From Verrucomicrobiota bacterium (GTDB taxonomy: Bacteria > Verrucomicrobiota > Verrucomicrobiia > Chthoniobacterales > JAFAMB01), in assembly GCA_019247695.1 (NCBI GenBank), contig JAFBAP010000183.1, positions 301 through 64,300 of the forward strand: DNA of 64,000 bases. The letters are read 5' to 3'. Shown one piece after another: positions 3,403 through 57,885 of the stretch. Made by a program: the position numbers and the translations under genes. The first letter of the stretch is position 1, and every line of letters starts with the position of its first letter. Under the pieces are notes generated by a model. That model worked only from the letters and a program-made list of their open reading frames with translations. It was not told where the DNA came from and ran no database searches.

Positions 3403-4272
3403 TCAATGGGTCCGAACGGATTTCCGGTTCTCAAACCGGCCCGCCAGACAATCGTGCCGGAAGCGCTCGACGCGCTCAAGCAAACGTACATCGAGCTCAT
3501 TCAGATGGTTTCGATCGCTCAGCAATGGTTTGGCCGCCCGCATCACCCGCCGCAGCGCCCGCCGGGCAATAAAGCGGGTTGCCCGCGTGTGCTGGCGGAG
3601 AAAAAAGTCGTTGTCGGGTGGCAGTTCGAACAGGCGCGGCAGCCGGTGCGGTGCATAGTCAAGCCCGACCGAATCGCACCAATCAAGCCACTTGAAATCC
3701 AGAATCCGGTCGTCGATACGCACCGGTACCCAGGGATGAGCCAGCGCGTCCGAGATGATGGCGCCGTGCATCGCTTCGCTCAACAACACTTCGCAATCGC
3801 GGATCTGTGCGATTACGGTTTCGACATCCCCCTGCGGGTCGATGTAGTCCATGCCGACGTCGGCGCAGACGCATTTCCACGCGTCGAGGTTATGGTGGAA
3901 ATGCGGCATTAACGCGAATTTAAAACGCGGGCTCCGCTCCGAGGCGGGGATGAACCGGCGGGCCAGCATGCCGGGATCGGTAATCGCCAGATCCGGGCTC
4001 AACCCAAGCGCCTGAGCCGACCGGGGACCTCGCACACAGTAAATCTCCCAGGAGGAATCCAGGGCGGGCAACTTGCCGTACCCCACGCCGGAACCCATGA
4101 CGACCTTCCGGGGCAGCCTCTCGATCCCATGGTTCTGGTTGAGGATTGTGCCGATCCCCAAAAACACCGTCGACGGATCGTCGTCAAAACATTCAGGAAT
4201 CAGCCGGTGCCAAAGCCAGGCGTTAAGCAAGTCGCCAAAATTCCTGATCGCGCTCCAGTAAAACAGCTTCAT
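3403..4272 (-). CDS. Polysaccharide pyruvyl transferase, ExoV-like
   Basis: ATG at 4272. The N-terminus MKLFYWSAIRNFGDLLNAWL matches the ExoV-type NFGD motif; the length is about 290 aa. Confidence 0.7.
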   Translation of the reverse strand: MKLFYWSAIRNFGDLLNAWLWHRLIPECFDDDPSTVFLGIGTILNQNHGIERLPRKVVMGSGVGYGKLPALDSSWEIYCVRGPRSAQALGLSPDLAITDPGMLARRFIPASERSPRFKFALMPHFHHNLDAWKCVCADVGMDYIDPQGDVETVIAQIRDCEVLLSEAMHGAIISDALAHPWVPVRIDDRILDFKWLDWCDSVGLDYAPHRLPRLFELPPDNDFFLRQHTRATRFIARRALRRVMRAAKPLLSDRNHLNELDVRLLERVERFRHDCLAGRFENRKSVRTH

Positions 4273-4407
4273 GGGTGGGGGCGGCACAAACAAACCAGCA
4301 AATGCGTTTTCGGCAAGCCCGTTAACGTGCCGTCGACGGCCGGAGGGGCTTGACTTGGGGGCGTGCGTGGGGCACTGACAAAGGCCGTACGATCACGCGC
4401 AGTAATT

Positions 4408-8956: not shown

Positions 8957-10876
8957 ATGCCCTTCAAAAAATATTTATCCATTCCTTTCCTGCTCGCCCT
9001 GGCGCTGCTCCTGCCCAACAAAGCAGCTCTCGCCCAGAGCACAGGATCTTCAACCACGACCGTCCCGCCCGGAACCCCCGGACCGGTCGCGATCCAACTG
9101 AACCAATACGGCTTAACTTCCCTGCAGGTGGGTGGCCGGGAGTGGCTCGGCCGGCGCTCCGGCAACACGCTCGTCGGTGACTTTTTCGTCGCTACCTGGA
9201 GAGGCAATAATTCATCCTCCAATTATGAGAGCCGCCTCACGGCCCAGTTAAACGGAACCACCACCAGCCAGACTTACCCGTGGGGATCCGCAACCTGCAC
9301 CTACACCACAACGTACAATACGCTAAACTACGACATTTCGGTAACTAACACCGACCCGACGCCGTTCTCAAAACTCCAGCTGATCCTGGGTGACGTCATG
9401 TTTCCGAATGCGGTTACGCCGAAGGGCTGGGATGATACCGATCCACCCAACGCCGATAATTACAGCGCTCCCGCGGTGTTGATCGGTGATTACGGCACAG
9501 GCATCCTGGGCCTGGTCAACGACGACGTGAACACCCCGGAGGTGACGCAGTTCAGCTCGAAATACTGGGGCGGTTACCCGCTTCGGGTCACGACCGAAAA
9601 GCCCATCCCCTCGGGCGCAACCGTCACGTTTCATGTCAGCCTGCGGTGGGCTGCGGAAGGAAGCACCAAGCAGCAGATTGCGCCGGAACTCTGGGCCGCC
9701 TTCCAGGCAACTCGTGTCCAGGAGTTGAATTGGAAAGACCGGCGGCCCATCGGGTCGATTTTCCTGGCCACCGTTCAGCGCAACTACCCGACCAATCCGC
9801 GGGGCTGGTATAATGATCCGACGATTAACGTTTTCACGGCCGCCGGCCAGGCCAGCTTCAAGTCCCGCATCATGACAACGGCCGCGCAGGTCGTGGCAGA
9901 ACTCAAATCCATGAACGCGCAGGGTTGCATCGTCTGGGACCTTGAGGGCGAGCAGTACCCCCAGGGCCTGGTGACCTTCATCGGGGACCCGACCCTGCTG
10001 CCAACCTTTGCGCCGGAAATGGATCCGATCGCCGATGGCTTTTTCAGCACGATCAAGAACGCCGGCTTCCGTGTCGGCGTCTGCCTGCGCTGCCAGCACC
10101 TCGTGCCCTTCTCCCAGGGCGGCTACGTCCAGGAGGAATACCCCGATAATCAATCGATCTTTAACGCCCTGGATCAGCGCATCACCTACGCCCAGCAGCG
10201 CTGGGGCTGCACCCTCTTCTATATCGACACCAACGGTGGCGTAAATGGGGTTTACGACGTCAGCATCTTCCAGCAATTGCAGGAAAAACATCCCGACGTG
10301 CTGCTGATTCCTGAAGAGAAGTACGATGCGTACTTTGCTTACACCGCGCCCTACTATGAACTTCGTCCGATGGGCACCAGCGCGGGCACGAGCGGCACTC
10401 CGGCAAGCGCCGTGGCGATCACCCCAGGGGCCTTTTCGGTGATCAACGTCGTCGATGGTGATTACGTCAACCGGCGCAACGAACTGCTCGCGGCAGTAAC
10501 ACGCGGCGACATCCTCCTTTACCGCACGTGGTATGCCAGCCCGGAGTTCGCCGCCGTGAAGAGCATCTACCAGCAGGCCACGGCAAACGGCGGACCCGTG
10601 GCGCAGGGAGACGTTTTCTCGGTGCATGCGGGCCAGGATACGGTGCTCGATGTCCTTACAAACGACTTCGACCAGATTGTCGGGCGCACGCCCCTGCAAA
10701 TCATCAGCTACACCCAGCCGACGTCCGGTTCGGTCTACACCCAGAACGGGTCGCTTCACTACGTGGCGCCGCTCACACCACCCGCGAGCGGTTTGAACAG
10801 CTTCACCTTCAAGTATACCATTTCGGACAGTGTCAAGACCAGCACTGCGCCGGTAACGGTTAACGTGGGCCAGTAG
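8957..10876 (+). CDS. Secreted paralog of 6342..7967 with an extra C-terminal cadherin/Ig-like domain
   Basis: Signal peptide MPFKKYLSIPFLLALALLLPNKAALA-QS. Shared blocks YPWGS, DYGTG, YPTNPRGW, IVWDLEGEQYPQG, CTLFYIDT, VLLIPE and RGDILLYR. The tail VLDVLTNDFD...SFTFKYTISD is typical of cadherin-like/VCBS-type Ig repeats. Confidence 0.75.
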   Translation: MPFKKYLSIPFLLALALLLPNKAALAQSTGSSTTTVPPGTPGPVAIQLNQYGLTSLQVGGREWLGRRSGNTLVGDFFVATWRGNNSSSNYESRLTAQLNGTTTSQTYPWGSATCTYTTTYNTLNYDISVTNTDPTPFSKLQLILGDVMFPNAVTPKGWDDTDPPNADNYSAPAVLIGDYGTGILGLVNDDVNTPEVTQFSSKYWGGYPLRVTTEKPIPSGATVTFHVSLRWAAEGSTKQQIAPELWAAFQATRVQELNWKDRRPIGSIFLATVQRNYPTNPRGWYNDPTINVFTAAGQASFKSRIMTTAAQVVAELKSMNAQGCIVWDLEGEQYPQGLVTFIGDPTLLPTFAPEMDPIADGFFSTIKNAGFRVGVCLRCQHLVPFSQGGYVQEEYPDNQSIFNALDQRITYAQQRWGCTLFYIDTNGGVNGVYDVSIFQQLQEKHPDVLLIPEEKYDAYFAYTAPYYELRPMGTSAGTSGTPASAVAITPGAFSVINVVDGDYVNRRNELLAAVTRGDILLYRTWYASPEFAAVKSIYQQATANGGPVAQGDVFSVHAGQDTVLDVLTNDFDQIVGRTPLQIISYTQPTSGSVYTQNGSLHYVAPLTPPASGLNSFTFKYTISDSVKTSTAPVTVNVGQ

Positions 10877-17757: not shown

Positions 17758-18609
17758 ATGCAAATAAGAGAGGGCTACGAGATCGAAATTCGCCCCCGCC
17801 AAAACTGGCTGAAGGTGGATTGGGAAAGCCTGGTGGAATTCCGGGACCTTTTCCTGTTGCTGGTCCGGCGGGATTTCGTGGTGAAATACAAGCAGACGTT
17901 ACTGGGACCGCTCTGGTTCGTGATTCAGCCGCTGCTGACTACCCTGGTGTTCACCGTAATTTTCGGCGGCGTGGCTAAAATATCGACGGAGGGCATTCCT
18001 CCCATGGCTTTTTACCTCAGCGGCTTGACGGTATGGGCCTATTTTTCCCAGTGCGTCAATACTAACGCGACCACGTTTCTCACCAACGCCAACCTGTTCT
18101 CGAAAGTGTTTTTCCCGCGGCTGATTGTGCCATTAAGCACGACGGTGTCCACTCTGTTTGCCCTCGCGGTTCAACTCGTCAGCCTGATCGCGTTTATCAC
18201 CTATTTCAAAGTCAACGGCGCGCCGGTCTACCCGACCGCACTTGCAATCGTCACCGTGCCTTTGGTGATCTTCCAATCGGCAGTCCTGGCGCTCGGCTTC
18301 GGCCTGCTGTTTGCATCGTTCACGGCGAAATACCAGGATCTCGTTCATCTCATCGGCTTCGGCCTGCAGATCTGGATGTACGCAAGCCCGATCATCTATC
18401 CCGCCTCGAAAATCCCGGCCAGGTACGCCTGGCTGATCTGGGTAAATCCGGTAGCGCCCGTCATCGAGAATTTCCGCGCAGGCTTTCTCGGTACCCCATT
18501 CATGCCGGCCCCGGTCACCGTCTGGTCCATCATTCTGACCGGATCGATCTTCTTTGCCGGCCTGTTCCAGTACCAGCGGGCCGAGCGCACCTTCATCGAC
18601 ACGATATAA
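17758..18609 (+). CDS. ABC-2 type polysaccharide export permease (Wzm/TagG/KpsM-like)
   Basis: 283 aa. LFLLLVRRDFVVKYKQTLLGPLWFVIQPLLTTLVFTVIFG is the canonical ABC-2 permease N-terminal signature, with about 6 TM segments. Confidence 0.85.
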   Translation: MQIREGYEIEIRPRQNWLKVDWESLVEFRDLFLLLVRRDFVVKYKQTLLGPLWFVIQPLLTTLVFTVIFGGVAKISTEGIPPMAFYLSGLTVWAYFSQCVNTNATTFLTNANLFSKVFFPRLIVPLSTTVSTLFALAVQLVSLIAFITYFKVNGAPVYPTALAIVTVPLVIFQSAVLALGFGLLFASFTAKYQDLVHLIGFGLQIWMYASPIIYPASKIPARYAWLIWVNPVAPVIENFRAGFLGTPFMPAPVTVWSIILTGSIFFAGLFQYQRAERTFIDTI

Positions 18610-18622
18610 AATGCCACCGCAG

Positions 18623-18960
18623 AAAATGCCACAAATGGAAGACGGGTGTCGGGTGTCGGGTGTCGAGTTCGGAGTTCGGAGTTCGGAGTTCGGAGCGGCT
18701 TCGCCCCACGGGTCCTTAATCTGTGTCAATCTGTGTAATCTGTGGATGCTTCCTCTTTTCTGCGTCCTCTGCGTGTTCTGCGGATGATTCGGTCTTCCCA
18801 CCGTGTGAACGTGACCCTCGGGGTAGATCGGACCCGCTTCTACGATGCCTCCGAACTCCGAACGCCGAGCCCCGAACTCTTCCCCTTCCCGCCGCGGCTC
18901 TCCGTGTGACCGGCACTCGACACTCGACACTCGACACCCGTCTTCAATTTGTGGCATTTT
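18623..18960. repeat. Composite palindromic repeat element, copy 1 (full, with 46-nt TIRs)
   Basis: 18623-18668 is the reverse complement of 18915-18960 at 43/46 positions (hand alignment). Nested tandem 7-mers (GGTGTCG x3, GAGTTCG x4) are mirrored on the other arm. The 99-nt core at 18756-18854 is shared with copy 2. Confidence 0.85.
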
Positions 18961-18962
18961 AA

Positions 18963-20219
18963 ATGAATGTTCTCGTCGATAACGGTTTACCCGAACTGAC
19001 GAACCTGGGTGACCTGGCGATGTTAATGGCGGCGTGTCGCGGGATTCGCCGGAGGTGGCCCGGCGCGAGGATTTTTACGTTCGCCACCAGTCCCGAGCGC
19101 CTGAAGGCGACGTTGCCTGACGTGGCGGCCGTGGACCCGGTCGGCCGGGAATTATGGTCGCAAGCGGCCGCCCTGGGCTGGCTGGTGGAGACCAAGGTGC
19201 CCCGGCTGCAAGGCCCGGCGCGCGTCTACCGCAGGCTGACGGGCCGGCCTTCACTTGCACCCTTGATCGAACTCGGGGCGCGCAGCGATAAACCGCGCGA
19301 AGGCGCGGTCTCGGCGTTTCTGCATTTCCTCCGCGAAGTCGACCTTTACTTCTGGGCCGGGGGCGGCTACCTGGCCGATCCGTTCGGATCATTGGCCACC
19401 AAACTGGCCAATACGCTTGAGGCGCTGTCCGGGCGCAAGGTGCCGGCAGCAGCTTTCGGGCTGGGCATCGGCCCGCTTCACCGGCCGCGCATCCTCAGGA
19501 CCGTACGTGCAACGATGCGCAATCTTTGCGCGATCGGGGTTCGGGAAGGAAGTTCACTGCAACTGCTGCAAGGTTGGTCACTGGATGGAGCTGACCTGTG
19601 TCTGACCGGAGACGATGCCGTTGCCGGGGCATTTGCCGAGCGACGGCCGGCACTCGGGGATGCGCTTGGGGTCAGCATCCGGCTCGAGTACTACTCCGAG
19701 CTCGCCGCCCGGCACTTGGCGGTGATCAAGGAGGTGGCACATGAATTCTGCGTCCGGCAAGGCGCCGGGATGACCTCGATTCCGATCGCGCCGGGCGACT
19801 TCGCACCCAACGCGAGGTTGCGCGCCGGTGCCGTGCCCTTCGAGGCGCCCGCATTCGAACTCGGGGCGGTTTACGCGGCGATCCGCCGTTGCCGGGTGGT
19901 GATCACCGCTTCTTACCATGCGGCCGTCTTTGCGCTCTCGATGGGAATTCCCGCCATCGGACTGGCCGGCAGCGAATACTACGTCCAGAAATTCCGGGGA
20001 CTGCAGAAACAATTCGGGGGTATCCCGCGGCTGATCTTGTGCCGGGCGCAAACGCCGGTCGACGCGTTCCGGGATGAACTTCGCGAAGCGCTCACGGGCT
20101 TTTGGTCAGATGCGCCCCGGGTTCGTCCAAGCCTTCTGGCGGGCGCGGCGGCACAGGTTGCCATCAACGACGCGTTTCGTGAGCGCGTATTTGACCGGTT
20201 GGAGGCGCAATTCCGGTAA
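18963..20219 (+). CDS. Polysaccharide pyruvyl transferase family protein (WcaK/CsaB-like)
   Basis: 418 aa. Has NLGDLAML near the N-terminus, WAGGGYLADPFG, and GVREGSSLQLL, which are typical PS_pyruv_trans blocks. Confidence 0.7.
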   Translation: MNVLVDNGLPELTNLGDLAMLMAACRGIRRRWPGARIFTFATSPERLKATLPDVAAVDPVGRELWSQAAALGWLVETKVPRLQGPARVYRRLTGRPSLAPLIELGARSDKPREGAVSAFLHFLREVDLYFWAGGGYLADPFGSLATKLANTLEALSGRKVPAAAFGLGIGPLHRPRILRTVRATMRNLCAIGVREGSSLQLLQGWSLDGADLCLTGDDAVAGAFAERRPALGDALGVSIRLEYYSELAARHLAVIKEVAHEFCVRQGAGMTSIPIAPGDFAPNARLRAGAVPFEAPAFELGAVYAAIRRCRVVITASYHAAVFALSMGIPAIGLAGSEYYVQKFRGLQKQFGGIPRLILCRAQTPVDAFRDELREALTGFWSDAPRVRPSLLAGAAAQVAINDAFRERVFDRLEAQFR

Positions 20220-41429: not shown

Positions 41430-42995
41430 TCATGCCAGAATGTCCCGGCGGGTCGAGCTTAAACCCGCCGTCGCCCCCGGCGCCGGCACCACCCGGTCCA
41501 ACACTTTGGCGCTGCAGAGCACCCCCGGCAGGCCCGCCCCGGGATGGGTACCGGCGCCAGTGAAATAGAGCGCCTGCACATCTTCACTGACGTTATGGGG
41601 TCGGAACCAGGCGCTCTGCGTGAGAACCGGTTCGAACTGGAACGCAGATCCTGCGTATGCATCAAGTTCGTACTCAAAGTCCGCAGGCGTCATGATGCGC
41701 CGTGTGACGATATGACGGCGCAGATCCGGGCACCACCGTTCCAACGAGGCCAGAATTTGCTCGGCATACGCTTCCTTGACGCCGGCCCAGTCCACGCGCC
41801 CCTGCAGATTCGGCACCGGTGAAAGGACATAGAAGCATTCACAGCCCGGCGGTGCCAGCGTCGGGTCAGTCCGGGTCGGTGCGTGCAGGTAGACTGAAAA
41901 GTCGGAGGCCAGAACCTTGCGGCTGAAAATGTCCTTGAGCAACTCGCCGTAACGCTCGGTCAGGATGATCGTGTGGTGGGCCAGGTCGGGGTAGGTGCGG
42001 TCCGTGCCGAAGTACACGACAAACAGGCCCATTGAATAGCGCATCCTTTGCAGGCGTTGGTCGGTCCACTTCCGGCGCCACTCCGGCGCGATCAGTTTTC
42101 GGTAGGTGTTCGCCGTATCCCCGTTTGACACGACCAGCGCGGTGCGGAACTCGGCGCCGCCGGCCGTCCGTATCCCGGTCGCGCGTCCCCGCTCCACCAG
42201 GATCTGCGACACCGGCGAGTTCAGGTGCAGCACGCCGCCCATCTCGCGAAAGAGTTGCACCAGAGCGTTAACCACTGCCCCGGTGCCGCCCATCGCGAAA
42301 TGCACCCCCCACTTCCGCTCCAGAAAGTGAATCATTGAATAGATCGAACTTGCCTGAAACGGGTTGCCGCCGATTAACAAGGGGTGAAAGCTGAACACCT
42401 GGCGCAGTTGCGGGTCCTGCAGGTAACGGCAGATCAGCCCGTAGACCGATTCGTGCGAGCGCAGGCGGATAAGATCCGGCGCAATTCTGGCCATGTCCCG
42501 GAAAGTCGAGAATGGCCGGTCAGCCAGGTCCACGAACGCACGCCGGAAGATCGCCTCAGATTGCCGGACAAACCGGCGGTAACCCGCGACGTCAGCACGG
42601 TTGAACTTCTCAATTTCGGCGAGGATGCGGCTTTCGTCGCCGGTGTAATCAAACCGGCGGCCGTCAGGAAAAAGGATTCGGTAATACGGGTCGCAGGGGA
42701 CGATCCGCAGGTAATCGGCGAGGTTTCGCCCAGCGAGCGTGAACAGTTCCTCGATCAGGAATGGCGCCGTAATAATGGTGGGACCTGCATCAAACGTAAA
42801 CCCGTCCTGTTCATAAACGTACGCCCGGCCGCCCGGTTTATCCCGCATTTCGAACAGGTGGACCTGGTAGCCGCGCGCCTGCAGACGAATCGCGGCCGCC
42901 AACCCGCCAAAACCGCTCCCGATCACCGCCGCCCGGAGCTGAGGGCCAGGCCGTTCGGCTGATGAAGGTGCGACCGCTGGCGTGCACGTTGTCAT
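41430..42995 (-). CDS. crtI: Phytoene desaturase (CrtI-type FAD oxidoreductase)
   Basis: Motifs AAVIGSGFGGLAAAIRL, PGGRAYVYEQDGFTFDAGPTIIT, and C-terminal YFTGAGTHPGAGLPGV. Confidence 0.9.
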   Translation of the reverse strand: MTTCTPAVAPSSAERPGPQLRAAVIGSGFGGLAAAIRLQARGYQVHLFEMRDKPGGRAYVYEQDGFTFDAGPTIITAPFLIEELFTLAGRNLADYLRIVPCDPYYRILFPDGRRFDYTGDESRILAEIEKFNRADVAGYRRFVRQSEAIFRRAFVDLADRPFSTFRDMARIAPDLIRLRSHESVYGLICRYLQDPQLRQVFSFHPLLIGGNPFQASSIYSMIHFLERKWGVHFAMGGTGAVVNALVQLFREMGGVLHLNSPVSQILVERGRATGIRTAGGAEFRTALVVSNGDTANTYRKLIAPEWRRKWTDQRLQRMRYSMGLFVVYFGTDRTYPDLAHHTIILTERYGELLKDIFSRKVLASDFSVYLHAPTRTDPTLAPPGCECFYVLSPVPNLQGRVDWAGVKEAYAEQILASLERWCPDLRRHIVTRRIMTPADFEYELDAYAGSAFQFEPVLTQSAWFRPHNVSEDVQALYFTGAGTHPGAGLPGVLCSAKVLDRVVPAPGATAGLSSTRRDILA

Positions 42996-44089
42996 GAGGT
43001 TTGAATGAGGCGTCGGATCGTTTGCAAAAGATTGTGCAGTCCGGTCTGGATTTCGGGCCTGAGCATCGGTGATTCGATCGCCAGGCAGGTTTGCTGGAAT
43101 AATTGTTCCACCACCGCCTCCTGCTCGGCCACTGCCTCGCTCTTCACGATGAGCCGTTGCATCTGACGGAGATCCGATGCGGTGCGTGACTTCTGACCCA
43201 GCAAGTTACGCAACTGCATGCGGTCTTCCGGCCCGAGGCGATCGTAAGCGGTGCATAATAGCAAGGTCTTTTTACCTTCTACCAGATCATCGCTTAACCC
43301 GCCCTGAACCCCGCGCACGAATTCTTTCAAGTCGTTCTGAATCTGAAACGCCAGACCGGCCGGCTGCGCCACGGCAGCCAACTGGCGCAATTCCGTTTCC
43401 GTAAGGCCGCCGATGATTCCGGCCAGAACGAGCGGGCATTCGAAGGTGTACCGGGCGGTCTTGCATTGATACATCCACTTGATCTCCCTTGCGCTTACCT
43501 GCGAAATACAACCCTCGCCCAGCAGGATGTCGGCGATCTCGCCATAACCCGTATCAAAAACGTAATCCAGAAGTTTCGAAAGCAAGGTTGCACGGACCGG
43601 GATCCGCGTATCGATGATGCATTTCTGGGCTAACGCAAAAAGCAGGTCTCCGAAAACGATCGTCAGGTTAGAACCGGTGCGGGCCGGTTGGCCGCCCTTA
43701 CTTCGGTCTTCGAGGGAACGGTGCAGCGACGGCAAATCACGCCGGAAATCAGAACTATCGATCAGGTCGTCGTGGATCAGCACGAACGCGTGCAACAATT
43801 CCAGACCGGTCGCAACCGACACAAGCTCATTAAGCAGATGCGCCGATTCTGCTGGCTGGAACAGCTCCGCTGCCTGGAGAAACAGGAGAGGCCGGATGCG
43901 TTTGCCGGGCCTCCGCATATACTCCAGAAGCGCTTCATGAAAAAGGTCCAGGCGTTTGTCGCGGTATAGCTGGGTTAACCCGGCCAACTTGCGTACGAGT
44001 TGGTCGTCTACCAACCGGCGAAAAACCTGCGGGTGAGTAGGCGTGAAATCCTCCGCCGGTAGTCCCTGAGTTAACGGTGCCACGTCCAA
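42992..44089 (-). CDS. Polyprenyl diphosphate synthase family protein (CrtE-like position; atypical second Asp-rich motif)
   Basis: Only the C-terminal ~365 aa of the 753-aa ORF look like this family (GKRIRPLL, FARM LIHDDLID). There is no in-frame ATG upstream of the GKR motif; the candidate starts are TTG 44089 and GTG 44083. ATGA overlap with crtI. Confidence 0.7.
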   Translation of the reverse strand: MDVAPLTQGLPAEDFTPTHPQVFRRLVDDQLVRKLAGLTQLYRDKRLDLFHEALLEYMRRPGKRIRPLLFLQAAELFQPAESAHLLNELVSVATGLELLHAFVLIHDDLIDSSDFRRDLPSLHRSLEDRSKGGQPARTGSNLTIVFGDLLFALAQKCIIDTRIPVRATLLSKLLDYVFDTGYGEIADILLGEGCISQVSAREIKWMYQCKTARYTFECPLVLAGIIGGLTETELRQLAAVAQPAGLAFQIQNDLKEFVRGVQGGLSDDLVEGKKTLLLCTAYDRLGPEDRMQLRNLLGQKSRTASDLRQMQRLIVKSEAVAEQEAVVEQLFQQTCLAIESPMLRPEIQTGLHNLLQTIRRLIQTS

Positions 44090-44124
44090 AAATACGCGAG
44101 GTGTAAATATTTGGATGCTCAGGC

Positions 44125-44456
44125 GGGTTCGGAGTTCGGGGTTCGGGGCTCGGAGCCGTCGTGGAACCGGGTCCGATCTCCTCCGAGGGGCACGCTCACA
44201 TGGCGGGAAGGCAGAATCATCCGCAGAACACGCAGAGAACGCAGAAAAAGAATCCCAAACGCTGGACCTGACAGCGGCAGCCGGCACCCATGATGCCGCT
44301 CCGCACTCCGAACTCCGAACTCCGAACTCCGAACTCTCCTCCTCCCGCCGTGGTCGCCGTGGTCCGCCGTGTTCGCCGTGTGAACTCTGTCGCCGTGCCC
44401 GCCAATCCCGCTGTGCCCGCCGTGTGACCGAACTCCGAACTCCGAACCCCGAACTC
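44125..44456. repeat. Composite repeat element, copy 2 (core inverted relative to copy 1)
   Basis: The core at 44150-44248 is the reverse complement of 18756-18854 at 86/99 positions (hand alignment). It is flanked by GTTCGG(A/G) repeats (44127-44155) and CTCCGAA x4 (44306-44333), then a CGCCGTG(G/T)T tandem module (44344-44429) and more CGAACTC repeats. Confidence 0.85.
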
Positions 44457-44509
44457 ATTGCAGCCCGGGCACACCGGCGTATGGTGATCCCGGTAACCCA
44501 TTTGCCTAC

Positions 44510-45631
44510 ATGACGTTTGCCGAACGCTTCCGTGATCCGAACCGCACCTTGTCCGCCAGCGCCCAATCTTTCCGACGCCTTCTGGAACCTTTGTCGAATC
44601 CGGGTCTGGAGGCGTTGGCGCAGCGCGCGGCCGCCATCACCCGCAAGCATTTCGGGCGCACGATGCGGTTGTTTGCACCGCTTTACTTGTCCAACGAGTG
44701 CATCAACAACTGCGCCTATTGCGGCTTTTCCCGTGACAACCCTATCCTGCGGGTGACCCTGACGGTCGAGCAGGTCCTGGCTGAAGCCCGTTACCTGGCC
44801 GATCGGGGCATCCGCAATGTCCTGCTCGTCTCCGGTGAGCACCCCAAGTACGTGTCCAACGGGTACCTGGCCTCCGTGGTGGCCGCGGTCCGGGACGTGA
44901 TTCCGGCGGTATCCCTCGAAGTGGCGCCGATGGAGGTGGAAGATTACCGCCCCCTGGTGGCCAACGGCGCGGAAGGGCTGGTCGTTTACCAGGAGACTTA
45001 CGATCGCGCCATCTACCGGGAAATGCATACGTCCGGGCCGAAACGCAATTTCGATTGGCGCCTGGAATGTCCCGAACGCGCGTTTGCCGCCGGGTTCCGG
45101 CGGCTGGGGATAGGCGTCCTTTTCGGCTTGGGGGATTGGCGGACGGAAGCGATGCACTTGTTTGAGCACGTGGAATTTCTGCTGCGCAAGTGTTGGCGGG
45201 CACAAATCACGGTAAGCTTGCCGCGATTGCGCCCGGCGGCGGGCGACTTTCACCCGAGGACGACGTTTTCAGAACGCGAACTCGTCCAGCTGGTCTGCGC
45301 GCTCAGGGTCATGCTCCCGCAAGTCGGTCTGGTTCTCAGCACCCGCGAACCGGGGCCCCTCCGGGATGCGCTGATGCCGTTGGGAATCACGATGATGAGC
45401 GCGGGCAGCTGCACGGCGCCGGGAGGCTATACCGGCCAGGGCTGCGAATCGCTCCACCTCACGGTTCGCGGCCGTGCCACGGCCGCCACGAATGTCCCTG
45501 GGAAAGCCGAAGCGCAGTTTGCCATCGACGACGATCGCTCGCCTGAAGAGGTCGCCGCCACGTTGACCCGCCTCGGCCTTGAGCCGGTTTGGAAGGATTG
45601 GGACCCGGCTCTCACCCTGGCGGACGCATGA
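44510..45631 (+). CDS. thiH: 2-iminoacetate synthase ThiH (radical SAM)
   Basis: Radical SAM motif CINNCAYC. Family blocks LYLSNEC, LLVSGEHP and VYQETYD. Confidence 0.9.
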   Translation: MTFAERFRDPNRTLSASAQSFRRLLEPLSNPGLEALAQRAAAITRKHFGRTMRLFAPLYLSNECINNCAYCGFSRDNPILRVTLTVEQVLAEARYLADRGIRNVLLVSGEHPKYVSNGYLASVVAAVRDVIPAVSLEVAPMEVEDYRPLVANGAEGLVVYQETYDRAIYREMHTSGPKRNFDWRLECPERAFAAGFRRLGIGVLFGLGDWRTEAMHLFEHVEFLLRKCWRAQITVSLPRLRPAAGDFHPRTTFSERELVQLVCALRVMLPQVGLVLSTREPGPLRDALMPLGITMMSAGSCTAPGGYTGQGCESLHLTVRGRATAATNVPGKAEAQFAIDDDRSPEEVAATLTRLGLEPVWKDWDPALTLADA

Positions 45632-52343: not shown

Positions 52344-52463
52344 GGTTCGGAGTTCGGGGTTCGCAGCGGCAGTGTGAAGGGCAAACGTCCATCGCAGCCC
52401 CAAATCCGAAAGTAATCCGCCTTCCCGCCGTCAGCCCCGTGTTCCGCCGTGGCGCCGTGTGAC
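52344..52463. repeat. Composite repeat element, copy 3 (miniature, lacks the 99-nt core)
   Basis: GGTTCGGAGTTCGGGGTTCG (52344-52363) plus ...CCTTCCCGCCG...GTTCCGCCGTGGCGCCGTGTGAC (52419-52463). Shares the heptamer and the CGCCGTG/CCGTGTGAC modules with copies 1 and 2. Confidence 0.7.
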
Positions 52464-52490
52464 AAAAAAGGCGCCGTAAGACGGCGCCTT
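52464..52490 (-). terminator. Rho-independent terminator of rplM-rpsI
   Basis: On the minus strand: AAGGCGCCGT-CTT-ACGGCGCCTT followed by TTTTTT. Located 26 nt after the rpsI stop. Confidence 0.85.
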
Positions 52491-52515
52491 CTGAAAATCT
52501 TGCCGGAACGAAGGC

Positions 52516-54901: not shown

Positions 54902-55924
54902 TCAACCGCTCTCTTCCACCGGCACGGCACGGCCACGGCGCCACACAAACCAACCCCCGACCGCTTTCTCATCCGGCGGATCCCCGGCGGTCACCCCAGC
55001 CTCCCTCAAGTGCTGCGTCGTCCGCGGCCGCACCCGCGCCCCCTGCTCTTCCACAAACGCCCGGCGGCCCAGCACCAGCCCGTAGGTCAGAAATCGCAGC
55101 CGGCACCTCAGCCGCTCCAGCCACGACAGCGCCCCCTGTTCCTGCTCGACCACCCGGCGGGCTGCCTCCAGGCCCAGCGCCGCTTGGCCCGCCTGCGAAC
55201 TGACCACCCCCGTACGATACAGCAATCGCCGGTAGGCCGCCTGCACCTCCGTCCAGTCAGCCCCTGTCTGCGAATCGTAACCCAAGGCGCGCGCAAGCCC
55301 TGCCCGCAACCGGCCTGCCCCCACCGCCTCGCCATAGCCGCAGTAACGGTAATCTTTCGGGTCAGCGCATAATCCAGCCCGCACCGGATTGAGGTCGATG
55401 TAGAGGGCCACGGCCGTCAGCGCTACGCCCCCGTCGACCAGCAGGCTTTTGAATCGTTCGGCCCACAGCGCCCCGTAGCGATCGTGCTTGCGGTTGTACC
55501 ACTGGGCAAAGCGGCTTTTGAGCTCCTGAAGGAAGCGGGACAGGTCGAACATACGCGCTTGGTAGCTTCGCCGTAAGGTTTGGGCAGCTAGCTCGCCTCC
55601 GGGCGTCTTGCCTTGCAGCACCCGCTCGTCGGTGTTGCGGCGTTCCGGCCCATAGAGGGCCTCGACCCGGTCCAGCAACTCCGGGTCGGACAGGAGACGG
55701 GGTTGGGGCACTTCGCACAAGATATGGAAGTGATTGCCCATAAGGGCGTAAGTGAGAATCGTGATGCCGCTGAAAGCCGCCAGCCCGTGCAGAAGGCGTA
55801 CGAAGTACTCCGCTTCTCCGGAGCCGTACCCGGTGGTTTTAAAGATGAATTCGCCGCCGGTGATGCGCGACAGGCAGTGGTAAAAGCAGGTGGGGCCGGG
55901 GCCTTTGAGGCGGGCGAGACGCAT
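54902..55924 (-). CDS. HUH/Y1 transposase-like protein (IS200-like, RAYT-type) with long C-terminal extension
   Basis: HUH motif GNHFHIL, plus QWYNRKHDRYGALWAERFKS and the Tyr-helix block ALYIDLNPVRAGL. These are characteristic of REP-associated tyrosine transposases (COG1943). Confidence 0.8.
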   Translation of the reverse strand: MRLARLKGPGPTCFYHCLSRITGGEFIFKTTGYGSGEAEYFVRLLHGLAAFSGITILTYALMGNHFHILCEVPQPRLLSDPELLDRVEALYGPERRNTDERVLQGKTPGGELAAQTLRRSYQARMFDLSRFLQELKSRFAQWYNRKHDRYGALWAERFKSLLVDGGVALTAVALYIDLNPVRAGLCADPKDYRYCGYGEAVGAGRLRAGLARALGYDSQTGADWTEVQAAYRRLLYRTGVVSSQAGQAALGLEAARRVVEQEQGALSWLERLRCRLRFLTYGLVLGRRAFVEEQGARVRPRTTQHLREAGVTAGDPPDEKAVGGWFVWRRGRAVPVEESG

Positions 55925-56000
55925 GGGTCAGGCGAATTCATAACTCATAAAAACAAAGTTGCAAATACGGATTCTCATTCCCCTTGCCCTGGCGGCAATT

Positions 56001-56446
56001 GGTCTGTCCCTATCGATCCACGCCAACCAGCGACCGCGCTCCCGCGGGTCGCCCCAACCGAGGCCGGGCGCCGATAAAACATCGATCAATTAGGCCTGTC
56101 CGCATCGACGAATAATGGCCAGCTCCGGTAAGCGGGTCTGTCCCGGTCGCCCCACAAGACGTGCCCACCCGTATTACCCTCCCCGACTTGGGCGCAGCGC
56201 CGGGCCAAGGTTGGCCAAATGGGCCGATTTAGCCCGCTGGCGCTCCGGCTGCGCCGCCCCCGGGAAACCTCCGGTACGGGGACAGGCCAGATTATACGAC
56301 GGGGACAGGCCAGATGATACCAGGGAGCGGCCTACAAGGGCCAAGGCTCTCCTCCAGATCGGAAGAGCGGGTCCGTTCTTCCTTGGACCCTGGGCGTACA
56401 TAGGGACAGGCCCGTTTTTCTCCTAGGGACAGGTCCGTTTGTTTCC
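56001..56446. repeat. Noncoding tract with 7 copies of a GGGACAG(G/A)(C/T)C motif, including two 23-bp tandem pairs
   Basis: Minus-orientation copies are at 56001, 56093 and 56134. Plus-orientation copies occur inside the tandem pair ACGGGGACAGGCCAGAT(T/G)ATAC (56276, 56299) and the tandem pair TAGGGACAGG(C/T)CCGTTT(T/G)T(C/T)TCC (56401, 56424). Confidence 0.75.
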
Positions 56447-56592
56447 CGAGTGTGGAATGACGAAAGGCGCAATGACTTGGAGGTTTCTGCCTCGTAATCG
56501 CTGGCACCCGGCACAGTACCGCGGGTACCCCGGACCTAGTGCAATCTCGAAGGACGTGTTGTGAGAGTACCCGGGCCGTGGTAAGCTCGACG

Positions 56593-57696
56593 ATGGAGCC
56601 TCCGTTGTTTGTGCGGCCCTTGACGGCCGAAGAAGTCCAGCAGCTGCGCGCCGGCCTGCAGTCCCGGGACGCCTTCACGCTGCGTCGCTGCCAAATCCTG
56701 CGGGCCAGCGCCCAGGGCCAACGGCCGGCCCAAATCGCCGCCGCCCTGGGCTGCGCCTCCCAAACGGTGCGCAACACCCTCCACGCCTTCGAGCAGCAAG
56801 GGCCCGACTGCTTGACGCGGGGCTCCAGCCGGCCCCACTCGGCCCACCGGCTGCTGGACGCCCCGCGGGCCGAGCGCTTACGGGACTTGCTGCACCAAAG
56901 CCCGCGCGCCTTCGGCTACCCCCAGAGCCACTGGACGTTGCCACTGGCGGCCGAAGTGGCTTACCAGCAGGGGCTCAGCGAGCGGGTGTTGAGTGCTGAG
57001 ACGGTGCGGCAGGCCATCCAGCGGCTGCGCCTGGGCTGGAAGCGGGCCAAGCAGTGGATCACGAGCCCCGACCCGGCCCACGAGCGAAAAAAAAAGCCCG
57101 GGCGCGGCTCTTGAGGTTAGCTGAGGCGCACCCCGACTGGGTGGTGGGTTTTGTCGATGAGACCTGGTGGAGCCGGTTGGCCCGCCCGGCGCTGCACGCC
57201 TGGAGCGGGCCGGAAGGGCCCTTGCGGTTAGAAGAACTTCAGGCCGACAAGGACGACCCGGACCCTAAAGCCCTCTGCTGTTACGGGTTGTTGCGGGCCG
57301 ACACCGAGGCCATCTGGCTGCGCTTCGTGCAAGGCCGGCCGGTTAGTCAGGTCACCGAGGATTTCCTGGGCTGGGCCTGCGAGCGGTTGGCCGCCGAAGG
57401 GCGCCGGGCCCTCTTGTTAGTTTGGGACAACGCGGCCTGGCACAAGAGGAGAGCGGGTGCGCGCCTGGATTCGGGCGCAAAACCGGCGGCTCAAACGCGA
57501 AGGGCGCGTGCGCATCGTGGTTTGCGCCTTGCCGATCAAGAGCCCGTGGCTCAACCGGATCGAGCCTTACTGGGTGCACGGCAAACGCGCCATCCTCGAA
57601 GCGGACCGCAAAGTGACGGCGGCCGAAACCATCGAGCGGGTCTGCGCTTACTTCGGCTGCGAAAGCTTCCCGCCGCTTGCCCAACAGCTCAATTGA
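56593..57696 (+). pseudogene. IS630-family transposase split over three reading frames
   Basis: Frame 1 (56593-57114) holds the HTH part. Frame 0 (to ~57445) holds the first two DDE residues. Frame 1 again (57457-57696) holds the final E. The first shift is at an A9G run; the second has no slippery motif. Confidence 0.7.
57087..57096 (+). promoter_or_regulatory. Candidate -1 programmed frameshift site (A AAA AAA AAG) in the IS630 transposase
   Basis: An A9G run lies exactly where frame 1 (ERKKKPGRGS*) must change to the -1 frame (RAKKKARARLL...) to continue the transposase. Confidence 0.5.
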
Positions 57697-57885
57697 AACT
57701 GCACTAGGGCAGGGCAGGAACGTTTGTCCCCGCCCCCTTACTCTGCAGACGCGGCGCTTGGGTTGAAGCGGCTCAGGGGCCAGACGAGAGCGCCATGATG
57801 ACTCCACACCGCTCGCGGATTAGAGGAATCCGTTTCGCGCAGGGTGTAAATTATCCGTTTGATCCGCAGCGTGTATTAGTTATTT

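Follow-up and report, generated by a model that had tools for sequence, protein, structure and literature searches.

Most of what is known about interspersed repeats comes from Proteobacteria and Firmicutes; in this respect the Verrucomicrobia are almost unexplored. BOX elements have the modular anatomy boxA-boxB(n)-boxC, and MITEs (miniature inverted-repeat transposable elements) of the Correia/NEMIS and Nezha types can carry promoters or RNase III sites. The closest analogue of the repeats described here is found in the REP/BIME/REPIN-RAYT systems of Proteobacteria (Bertels & Rainey, PMC3116915; PMC5581495), and the modular intergenic BOX repeats of Streptococcus pneumoniae (Croucher et al., PMC3049150) and MITEs of bacteria, for instance Correia/NEMIS or Nezha (review PMC10969869), were used for further comparison. 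The subject of this report is el1, a nested palindrome of 338 bp in a 64,000-nt stretch of DNA (the window, meaning the whole stretch analysed), and its host is a soil verrucomicrobium, uncultured and of Chthoniobacterales type. The stretch belongs to a metagenome contig of 67.6 kb (ENA ERZ27313880), and close homologues of the proteins encoded on it carry the labels Verrucomicrobia or Chthoniobacterales.

el1 is one copy of a previously undescribed, many-copy, non-coding repeat family of soil Verrucomicrobia. It resembles REP, BIME and MITE-type repeats without belonging to any of them, and the family lacks at least one defining feature of each known family tested. A first-pass annotation of the window had called its arms of tandem repeats atypical of known MITE, REP or ERIC families; as far as our tests went, they are indeed atypical of described bacterial repeats, for no Rfam match was obtained and the repeat sequences were not found in the searchable literature. 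We lean towards a long-lived, REP/BIME/REPIN-like palindromic hairpin repeat, and not a cut-and-paste MITE, as the explanation of the family.

Anatomy of el1 and of its repeat family

el1 occupies the gap from the TAA of a wzm-like gene (18607-18609) to the ATG of a pyruvyl transferase gene (18963). Through an inverted-repeat search and Tandem Repeats Finder, we confirmed what the first-pass annotation had proposed, namely that one structured element with 46-nt terminal inverted repeats, mirrored tandem heptamers in the arms and 9-mer arrays inside them fills this gap. The outer arms (18623-18668 and 18915-18960, 46 nt) are complementary at 43/46 positions (93%), and a second inverted pair of 31 nt (18665-18695 and 18849-18879) at 28/31 (90%). 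Tandem Repeats Finder reported four heptamer arrays, CGGGTGT x3.3 (18643-18665), GAGTTCG x4.4 (18665-18695), CTCCGAA x4.4 (18849-18879) and CACTCGA x3.4 (18914-18937), and two 9-mer arrays, TAATCTGTG x3.0 (18717-18744) and TCTGCGTCC x2.7 (18759-18782). The AAAATGCCAC box was located, as described before, at 18608 and 18623 and inverted at 18951-18960. The "non-repetitive core" formerly placed at 18756-18854 had to be shortened: it is unique at 18786-18848, but its beginning overlaps the R nonamers at 18755-18785. The + strand of el1 folds at -185 kcal/mol versus -119.7 +/- 5.5 kcal/mol for dinucleotide shuffles (z = -11.8) and the - strand at -173.8 kcal/mol (z = -9.0 versus shuffles); since both energies lie far below those of the shuffles, the palindrome is beyond chance. 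The parts of el1 and its two flanking genes are as follows.

17758-18609, + strand: ABC-2 (Wzm-like) permease gene upstream of el1 (Pfam PF01061, E = 3e-20); its TAA overlaps the first G-box copy
18604-18617, + strand: first G-box copy ATATAAAATGCCAC, overlapping the stop codon; half of a double G box
18623-18643, + strand: G box at the left terminus, AAAATGCCACAAATGGAAGAC; the 46-nt inverted repeat has its outer end here
18643-18665, + strand: outer-arm heptamers GGTGTCG/CGGGTGT, 3.3 copies, inverted partner at 18914-18937
18665-18695, + strand: inner-arm heptamers GAGTTCG, 4.4 copies, paired with 18849-18879 at 90%
18715-18747, - strand: Q module, three tandem 9/10-mers; the - strand reads ATCCACAGATTACACAGATTGACACAGATTAAG
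18755-18785, - strand: R module, three tandem 9-mers; the - strand reads ATCCGCAGAACACGCAGAGGACGCAGAAAAG
18786-18848, - strand: P module, the sole non-repetitive segment of el1, GGGTCCGATCT..CCGAGGG..CACACGG..GAAGACCGAATC
18849-18879, + strand: heptamers CTCCGAA, 4.4 copies, inverted partner of 18665-18695
18880-18913, - strand: remnant of a C module, starting GTCACACGGAGAGCCGCGGCGGGAAGGGGAA; an unpaired bulge of the right arm in the fold
18914-18937, + strand: heptamers CACTCGA/CGACACT, 3.4 copies, inverted partner of 18643-18665
18938-18962, + strand: right terminal G box CCCGTCTTCAATTTGTGGCATTTTAA, 0-2 nt between its end and the ATG
18963-20219, + strand: polysaccharide pyruvyl transferase gene downstream of el1 (Pfam PF04230, E = 1e-23)

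Copies were sought in genomes and metagenomes, and the related loci that were fetched (about 0.5 Mb altogether) carry L-numbers. A first genome-scan pattern with 17 specified bases was too loose and most of its 120 stretches were chance matches; true R homologues were found only in 13 contigs of the metagenome-assembled genome (MAG) JAFAUY01 (Verrucomicrobiota bacterium CP_BM_RX_22), which carry R's 19-mer exactly. The metagenome scan, with the exact R 19-mer as query, returned 72 stretches, about 45 of them from the JGI soil metagenome Ga0213876. About 58 R-bearing elements have family neighbour modules (2 in the window, 15 in JAFAUY01 and about 40 in one soil metagenome). The two related copies that had been announced for the window itself are these.

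44125-44456, + strand: el2, second member, 76% match to el1 over 215 nt, core inverted
52344-52462, - strand: el3, partial member, C module (GTCACACGGCGCCACGGCGG...) followed by GTTCGGA-type heptamers, upstream of lipA

The R nonamer array ATCCGCAGAACACGCAGAGAACGCAGAAAAG is the most conserved stretch common to el1 and el2. All 63 close family copies of R differ by 0-3 mismatches per 31 nt (35 are exact), and the additional, unselected R copies in the fetched loci showed 0-3/31 differences from the consensus and none between 4 and 7. For the Q module, the first 20 nt were exact in 42/68 family matches and had one mismatch in 15/68. Read along R, the modules follow a constant order, namely inverted G box (optional), G-rich heptamers, C, P or H, R, Q, a variable S or T, C-rich heptamers and G box. 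The G box, AATGCCACAAATGRAGAG, forms the outermost 18-20 nt, is inverted and optional at the R-upstream end, and is often double at the distal end (GTGGCATTTT-CYGC-TTGTGGCATT). The double G box of el1, which in the other orientation reads GTGGCATTTT-CYGC-GTGGCATT, is conserved in L004, L009, L081, L101, L143, L144, L168 and L176, and the left G box of el1 type forms the left end of the complete shell elements L162, L139, L148, L149, L143 and L153. The C module consists of nonamers CACGGCGNN and always starts GTCACACGG, as does the C remnant of el1. P is the 63-nt unique segment of el1 and el2, with about 9-13 copies (window and Ga0213876), and H is a small ATCCGCCGC...GCGGCGGAT hairpin. In el2 the order is GTTCGGR heptamers, P, R (44219-44249), a TTGACA-bearing S segment, CTCCGAA x5.4, CGCCGTG nonamers (an inverted C) and CCGAACT x4.1; a radical-SAM gene lies 53 nt further downstream.

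The heptamers of the family are GTTCGGA, GGTGTCG, GTTACCC and close variants, in arrays of 17-79 nt (2.5 to 11 units), and the arms are often unequal. Their orientation relative to R was as expected in 77/82 arrays, and the same heptamer type formed an inverted pair in 14/16 two-armed elements (P about 2e-4). The shells are mirror-nested in el1 and L143, and G box plus heptamers also occur as a stand-alone shell round unrelated cargos in L162 (183 nt) and L148 (290 nt). The family copies are mosaics of shuffled modules and not diverged copies of a single master.

A stem made of tandem units would pair in any 7-nt register, and gain or loss of a unit would leave it intact. This construction principle is unusual, since such stems could cope with slippage by pairing in a number of registers. 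Another reading is that of a contingency locus, in which heptamer slippage would switch the expression of flanking polysaccharide genes. The array size differs between copies from 2.5 to 11 units, and the surroundings of el1 are of surface polysaccharide type (exosortase, TPR protein, Wzm-like permease, el1, pyruvyl transferase and three glycosyltransferases). However, the arrays are placed at the 3' ends of genes instead of promoters or reading frames, which tells against the phase-variable role entertained at first pass, the functions of the neighbours are unrelated across sites (rpsI/lipA, rdgB-like, radical SAM, photolyase neighbourhood), and with two arms present a change of units merely shifts the stem register. 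We regard such a locus as very unlikely.

Some further observations belong to the family. The R strand is T-poor (11-24% T) and nearly without stop codons, therefore long spurious ORFs and a called "gene" of 41 aa appear inside el1; examples on the T-poor strand are 18133-18957 (-) and 42992-45253 (-) in the window and 4027-4152 in L001. A further module, TTGATCCGCAATCCGTAT, is single and adjoins R at 5420-5450 of L062. The 1.1 kb upstream of el2 (42995-44125), between a divergent amine-oxidase gene and the radical-SAM gene, contained no Pfam-detectable genes and no Rfam matches.

Orthologous sites and candidate mobilisers

The window, L195 and L196 all have an occupied junction between wzm and the pyruvyl transferase gene. 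L195, the JAFAUY01 orthologue (88% Wzm identity), has Q and R oriented as in el1, but GGTAACG heptamers replace its G box and GGTGTCG array, and H replaces P; L196 (82% Wzm identity) shows a double G box and then a contig break. The site is occupied at 82-100% Wzm identity and empty at 71-79%. In three more distant relatives (79%, 76% and 71% Wzm identity) a look for empty sites, as suggested at first pass, showed short, module-free gaps of 84, 99 and 148 nt. The stop of the wzm-like gene keeps its position in 5 orthologues and so does the start codon of the pyruvyl transferase gene (orthologue N-termini MNVLVDNG, MRVLVDNG, MNILVDNG and MKILIDNG); because both positions are conserved in all relatives compared, an el1-type element replaced the whole spacer and left the genes untouched. 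The empty gap of L198, a Chthoniobacterales relative, contains at 3870-3890 the sequence GGGCAGACCGGCGGG, which is the start of the JAFAUY01 S segment (L052, L086) and could be a remnant or chance.

Two other sites are occupied in pairs. At the rdgB-like site, L101 and L162 have the first ~75 nt in common (q unit, R and start of Q) and nothing beyond, and at the rpsI-terminator site el3 and L220 have the first 17 nt in common (GTCACACGGCGCCACGG) and then diverge; in occupied-site pairs the first module and its orientation are common and the remainder is unalignable. The flanking coding DNA at conserved sites is 86.0% and 87.5% identical, and for the common Q-R stretch our reading of the rdgB-like site alignments gives about 93% identity or more. 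R and Q appear more conserved than the flanking genes. Three orthologous sites have stayed occupied in lineages whose genes are only 86-87.5% identical, and el1 is therefore no recent insertion. The elements are old residents, whose core is constrained or homogenised and whose periphery changes fast. A canonical intrinsic terminator follows rpsI at 52466-52494 (- strand; GGCGCCGTCTTACGGCGCC + TTTTTT), with the same junction to the element in L220, and el3 begins directly behind its T-run; since this terminator adjoins el3, the host uses ordinary terminators beside the repeat family.

Two candidate mobilisers were found in the window.

54902-55924, - strand: RayT-like Y1 (HUH) transposase gene (NF047646, 50 bits with a cut-off of 80; Pfam Y1_Tnp, 26 bits)
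56529-57714: IS630-family insertion sequence with 33-nt imperfect terminal repeats; transposase split into ORFs 56539-57114 and 57054-57707

The RayT-like protein contains the motifs HFH and Y-x-x-x-N-P, and its gene is single-copy and syntenic beside the photolyase gene in relatives (91% identity in L220, 75% in L222). Its upstream region (55960-56450) contains seven repeats of GGGACAGGCC type, of which three point one way and four the other, with a 23-nt tandem pair at 56276-56326 among them; a related motif is present in L222, where the TTGATCCGCAATCCGTAT module also occurs as an inverted pair adjoining the RayT upstream region (1975-2065). The GGGACAGGCC motif has no other occurrence in the ~0.5 Mb of family loci, and none of the fetched family loci contains a RayT homologue. 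As this motif is not dispersed and the gene has no family module at its flanks, a link between RayT and el1 is unsupported. The IS630-like element, the only DDE transposon in the window, is inserted with the RayT upstream region on one side and a TPR gene on the other; L222 lacks it at this place.

These data bear on a classical MITE, that is, a deletion derivative of a DDE transposon moved by cut-and-paste in trans through its G-box ends, with the interior as passenger. The terminal repeat AATGCCACAAATGRAGAG bounds at least 10 complete elements with differing cargos, more distant relatives have an empty orthologous site, an IS630-family element is present in the window, and assemblies break inside the arrays, as expected of high-copy repeats (a second assembly of the window sequence, Logan SRR8113284, breaks in the GGTGTCG array). 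On the other side, a direct duplication flanks 0/10 complete elements, el1 included, the ends of the IS630-like element (CCCGGACCTAGTGCAATC...) are unrelated to the G box, and no G-box match lies beside a transposase in the ~0.5 Mb of related loci. In many copies the G box is missing or single, and the three sites occupied at 86-87.5% gene identity have swapped distal modules. The AAAATGCCAC box at 18608 was considered as a target-site duplication and ruled out, as it is half of the double G box conserved in other copies. Of the MITE-like character noted at first pass, the small, non-coding, inverted-repeat-bounded and multi-copy nature stands, but the missing target-site duplication, the non-uniform ends and the mosaic copies do not agree with it. 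A classical MITE is in our opinion an unlikely origin.

Placement at stop codons, RNA tests and the phage parallel

The elements are intergenic, fill their gaps and lie mostly at gene 3' ends. Among 29 classifiable gaps, 13 were convergent, 12 co-directional and 4 divergent, counts that are biased since neighbour genes of the related loci came from crude ORFs filtered by third-codon-position G+C (GC3) and the loci had been chosen via R. Boundary calling by k-mers (k = 10, k = 12) was too noisy, and motif-anchored stop-codon offsets were used instead. The ATCCRCMGA module shared its first base with the final A of a TGA or TAA closing a long ORF in 6/32 family cases (~0.4 expected for each offset; Poisson 4e-6), and likewise with the final A of such a stop in 4/13 viral cases (~0.16 expected for each offset; Poisson 2e-5). 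GTCACACGG begins 0-1 nt past the stop in 4/20 cases, G boxes typically start 0-4 nt past the stop triplet, and the first G box of el1 contains the stop codon.

The viral cases come from IMG/VR, in which the Q-type array ATCCACAGATTACNCAGATT was found in 19 contigs, 16 of them convincing; one 29.7-kb contig has six exact Q-type matches. The R, G and C modules gave only chance matches in coding sequence of IMG/VR contigs (three for G/C), and the phage and plasmid reference collections gave marginal 29-31-nt matches only. The clearest layout is that of L218, a contig with weak tail-protein matches.

L218 (IMG/VR UViG_3300035701_004545), 959-1011, 3463-3571, 3976-4040, 4222-4300 and 8976-9092: five hairpins between co-directional ORFs, each arm of three nonamers (ATCCGCAGATTACGCAGATTACACAGAT)

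The L218 hairpins begin on or within ~20 nt of a stop codon, and at least 4/5 have a candidate start codon 6-21 nt past the stem. The stop-hairpin-start layout of el1 is that of L218 on a larger scale. Nonamer-arm hairpins between a stop and the next start were also seen in L214/L217, L201 and L206. Four JGI soil contigs (L123, L160, L169 and L182) contain short hairpins of R-type nonamers alone (CGCAGAANN x3, loop, inverted copy), and the one in L182 is flanked by a stop codon and an rpmI-like start. A perfect DnaA-box 9-mer, TTATCCACA, opens about half of the viral Q arrays; a DnaA-box idea for the family was dropped, as the chromosomal copies differ (ACATCCACA, GCATCCACA).

Based on this phage parallel, one rival explanation stands out as having real backing, a dedicated cis-regulatory device, in which the R-Q (and C) arrays would bind a trans-acting protein and the stop-anchored hairpin would govern termination, RNase III-type processing or start coupling. 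Consistent with it are the apparently higher conservation of R and Q than of neighbour genes, module starts on the last base of the stop codon far above chance, and the right arm of el1 ending 0-2 nt before the pyruvyl-transferase ATG, upstream of which no Shine-Dalgarno-like sequence is visible; the Q-type arrays of the 16 IMG/VR contigs and the stop-to-start hairpins of L218 point the same way. Yet about half of the chromosomal copies lie in convergent gaps and have no downstream start, the core orientation relative to genes is random, no candidate binding protein is known, the viral contigs share none of the R, G and C modules, and the site is empty in relatives. We hold such a device to be a minority candidate, on balance rather unlikely.

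A more specific and unlikely version would unite the family with the phage Q hairpins as post-termination "operon punctuation", in which a conserved host factor would read the invariant CRCAGA-type nonamers and set transcript ends, RNase cleavage or ribosome hand-over. The stem would then extend from a stop codon to just before the next start or the stop of a convergent gene, and the signal would have been copied by phages; this too we doubt. If true, it would mean that an under-studied phylum punctuates its operons in a new way. Should the stop-anchored hairpins be regulatory, they would offer a handle on operon punctuation in these bacteria and phages.

Tests at the RNA level were mostly negative. 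Rfam 15 gave no matches over the whole window at gathering thresholds, and for el1 at E <= 10 only a snoRNA match (10.7 bits, E = 3.8), so the Rfam check proposed at first pass revealed no family; L218 gave only sub-threshold, miRNA-precursor-like hairpin matches. A tRNA/tmRNA search found none, no intrinsic terminator (G+C-rich hairpin with T-run) was detected in 18300-19300, and no sigma-70-type promoter was predicted in el1. A sigma-54 promoter reading of the double G box was rejected from the sequence, the GG/GC spacing being 10-11 nt and not 12. The elements might possibly have a rut (Rho-loading) role; the R+ strand is T-poor, C is about equal to G in the R and C modules, and only the CTCCGAA arms are C-rich and G-poor, and we do not adopt this reading. 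A strand test through G-U versus A-C mismatches and fold energy was confounded, as the R- strand is intrinsically rich in G and U.

A structured small RNA or riboswitch-like core, with the repeats as incidental, is extremely unlikely. The ~60-nt unique P segment is common to 9-13 copies, and the S segments of both lineages carry TTGACA at a constant 15-nt spacing to CAnnAT. Against this, el1 matched no RNA family in Rfam even at E <= 10, apart from the snoRNA match named above, and covariation, for which the first pass had asked, was not found in P: RNAalifold on nine P copies gave 0/20 predicted pairs with compensatory changes and a positive covariation term (+1.05), and local structure in the P core was rejected. 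A hairpin in S was likewise rejected, because one-sided deletions are uncompensated and the putative stem is not maintained. As a promoter, TTGACA-N15-CAnnAT is conserved but has atypical spacing, the downstream genes are mostly not co-oriented (co-oriented in only 10/29), and el1 is without an S segment.

For the long-lived REP/BIME/REPIN-like hairpin repeat that we favour, the following mechanism may be proposed. el1 consists of nested shells round a cargo, with the G box and GGTGTCG outside, GAGTTCG inside, and Q, R, P and a remnant C as the cargo, whose polarity is fixed. Copies would arise via hairpin-based or recombinational copying into the space right behind stop codons, and the tandem-repeat arms would keep the stem pairable in spite of slippage. 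In the wzm-to-pyruvyl-transferase transcript, a hairpin of ~330 nt could act as RNA barrier or processing site, be it as 3'-end protector, factor-dependent terminator or target of a double-strand RNase, and could partly uncouple the two halves of the polysaccharide operon, while a putative sequence-specific partner would hold the R-Q nonamers constant.

Several points weigh against this explanation. The wzm site in L197, L198 and L200 has a gap without modules, so the element is dispensable there, and no mobilising enzyme is linked to the family, the RayT-like gene having GGGACAGGCC repeats at its side and no family module. Many members are one-armed and fold weakly on one (R) strand, hence the hairpin is not universal. 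The orientation of R in co-directional gaps is random (6 sense versus 6 antisense), which argues against a strand-specific RNA function; the bias of the placement counts was stated above, and an RNA-level role of the el1 hairpin is one that we infer.

Comparison with known systems

Eukaryotic Foldback (FB) transposons have long terminal inverted repeats made of variable numbers of short tandem repeats, with a variable middle. The el1 family likewise has inverted arms built of tandem repeats round a variable middle, but Foldback elements are eukaryotic and of kilobase scale, have target-site duplications and, in some copies, a transposase, and no homology is implied. Phage intercistronic repeats include the T7 RNase III sites and the start-associated and extended start-associated sequences of mycobacteriophages. 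Like L218 and el1, these are repeated and placed from stop to start in polycistronic units; they differ in being phage-specific and not built of nonamers.

Intergenic heptamers are represented by the cyanobacterial STRR, the TAACTGA repeats of Beggiatoaceae (MacGregor, PMC4679880) and those of Xanthomonas and Nostoc (PMC4692102). Such arrays are similar to ours in having 2 to more than 10 direct units, an intergenic position, variable copy number and a spread mechanism that is not known. The STRR/TAACTGA arrays are single, direct and mostly just upstream of start codons (PMC4679880), whereas the heptamers of the el1 family have other sequences and form inverted pairs round a conserved core behind stop codons.

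Like MITEs, the elements of the el1 family are short, code for nothing, have terminal inverted repeats at their ends and occur between genes in multiple copies. The family differs by the absence of a target-site duplication and of a cognate transposase, by non-uniform ends, by arms of tandem repeats and by sites that are conserved between diverged genomes. BOX elements are also non-coding and modular, with variable tandem internal units and terminal modules that pair into a stem; they require no target-site duplication and have possible effects on neighbour transcripts. By their description they are set apart through three fixed modules of 45-59 nt and another phylum and G+C content, while the el1 family has at least 8 module types, units of 7 and 9 nt, shells nested in one another and a position that strictly abuts stop codons.

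The REP/REPIN systems come closest. REPs and the el1 family are both extragenic, high-copy, hairpin-forming, enriched at 3' ends and in convergent gaps, and persistent, and the genome studied here has a single-copy, syntenic RayT-like Y1 gene, as in REP-RAYT systems. However, REP units are imperfect palindromes of 20-40 nt with a conserved head tetranucleotide, a feature absent from the el1 family, in which the units are direct tandem 7-mers and 9-mers and palindromy comes only from inverted arrays. The elements of the el1 family are also 150-600 nt in size with a polar, sequence-invariant core, and the GGGACAGGCC repeats beside the RayT-like gene differ from the family and are not dispersed, unlike in REPIN-RAYT. 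Since these elements break short-read assemblies and their T-poor strand yields spurious ORFs, their recognition improves the annotation of soil MAGs. The family joins selfish-type traits (high copy number, mosaicism) with functional-type traits (site persistence, a conserved core and base-exact placement at stops). In architecture it is nearest to BIMEs, which are likewise mosaics of several motif types in regular order and alternating orientation, and we understand this likeness as analogy and not homology.

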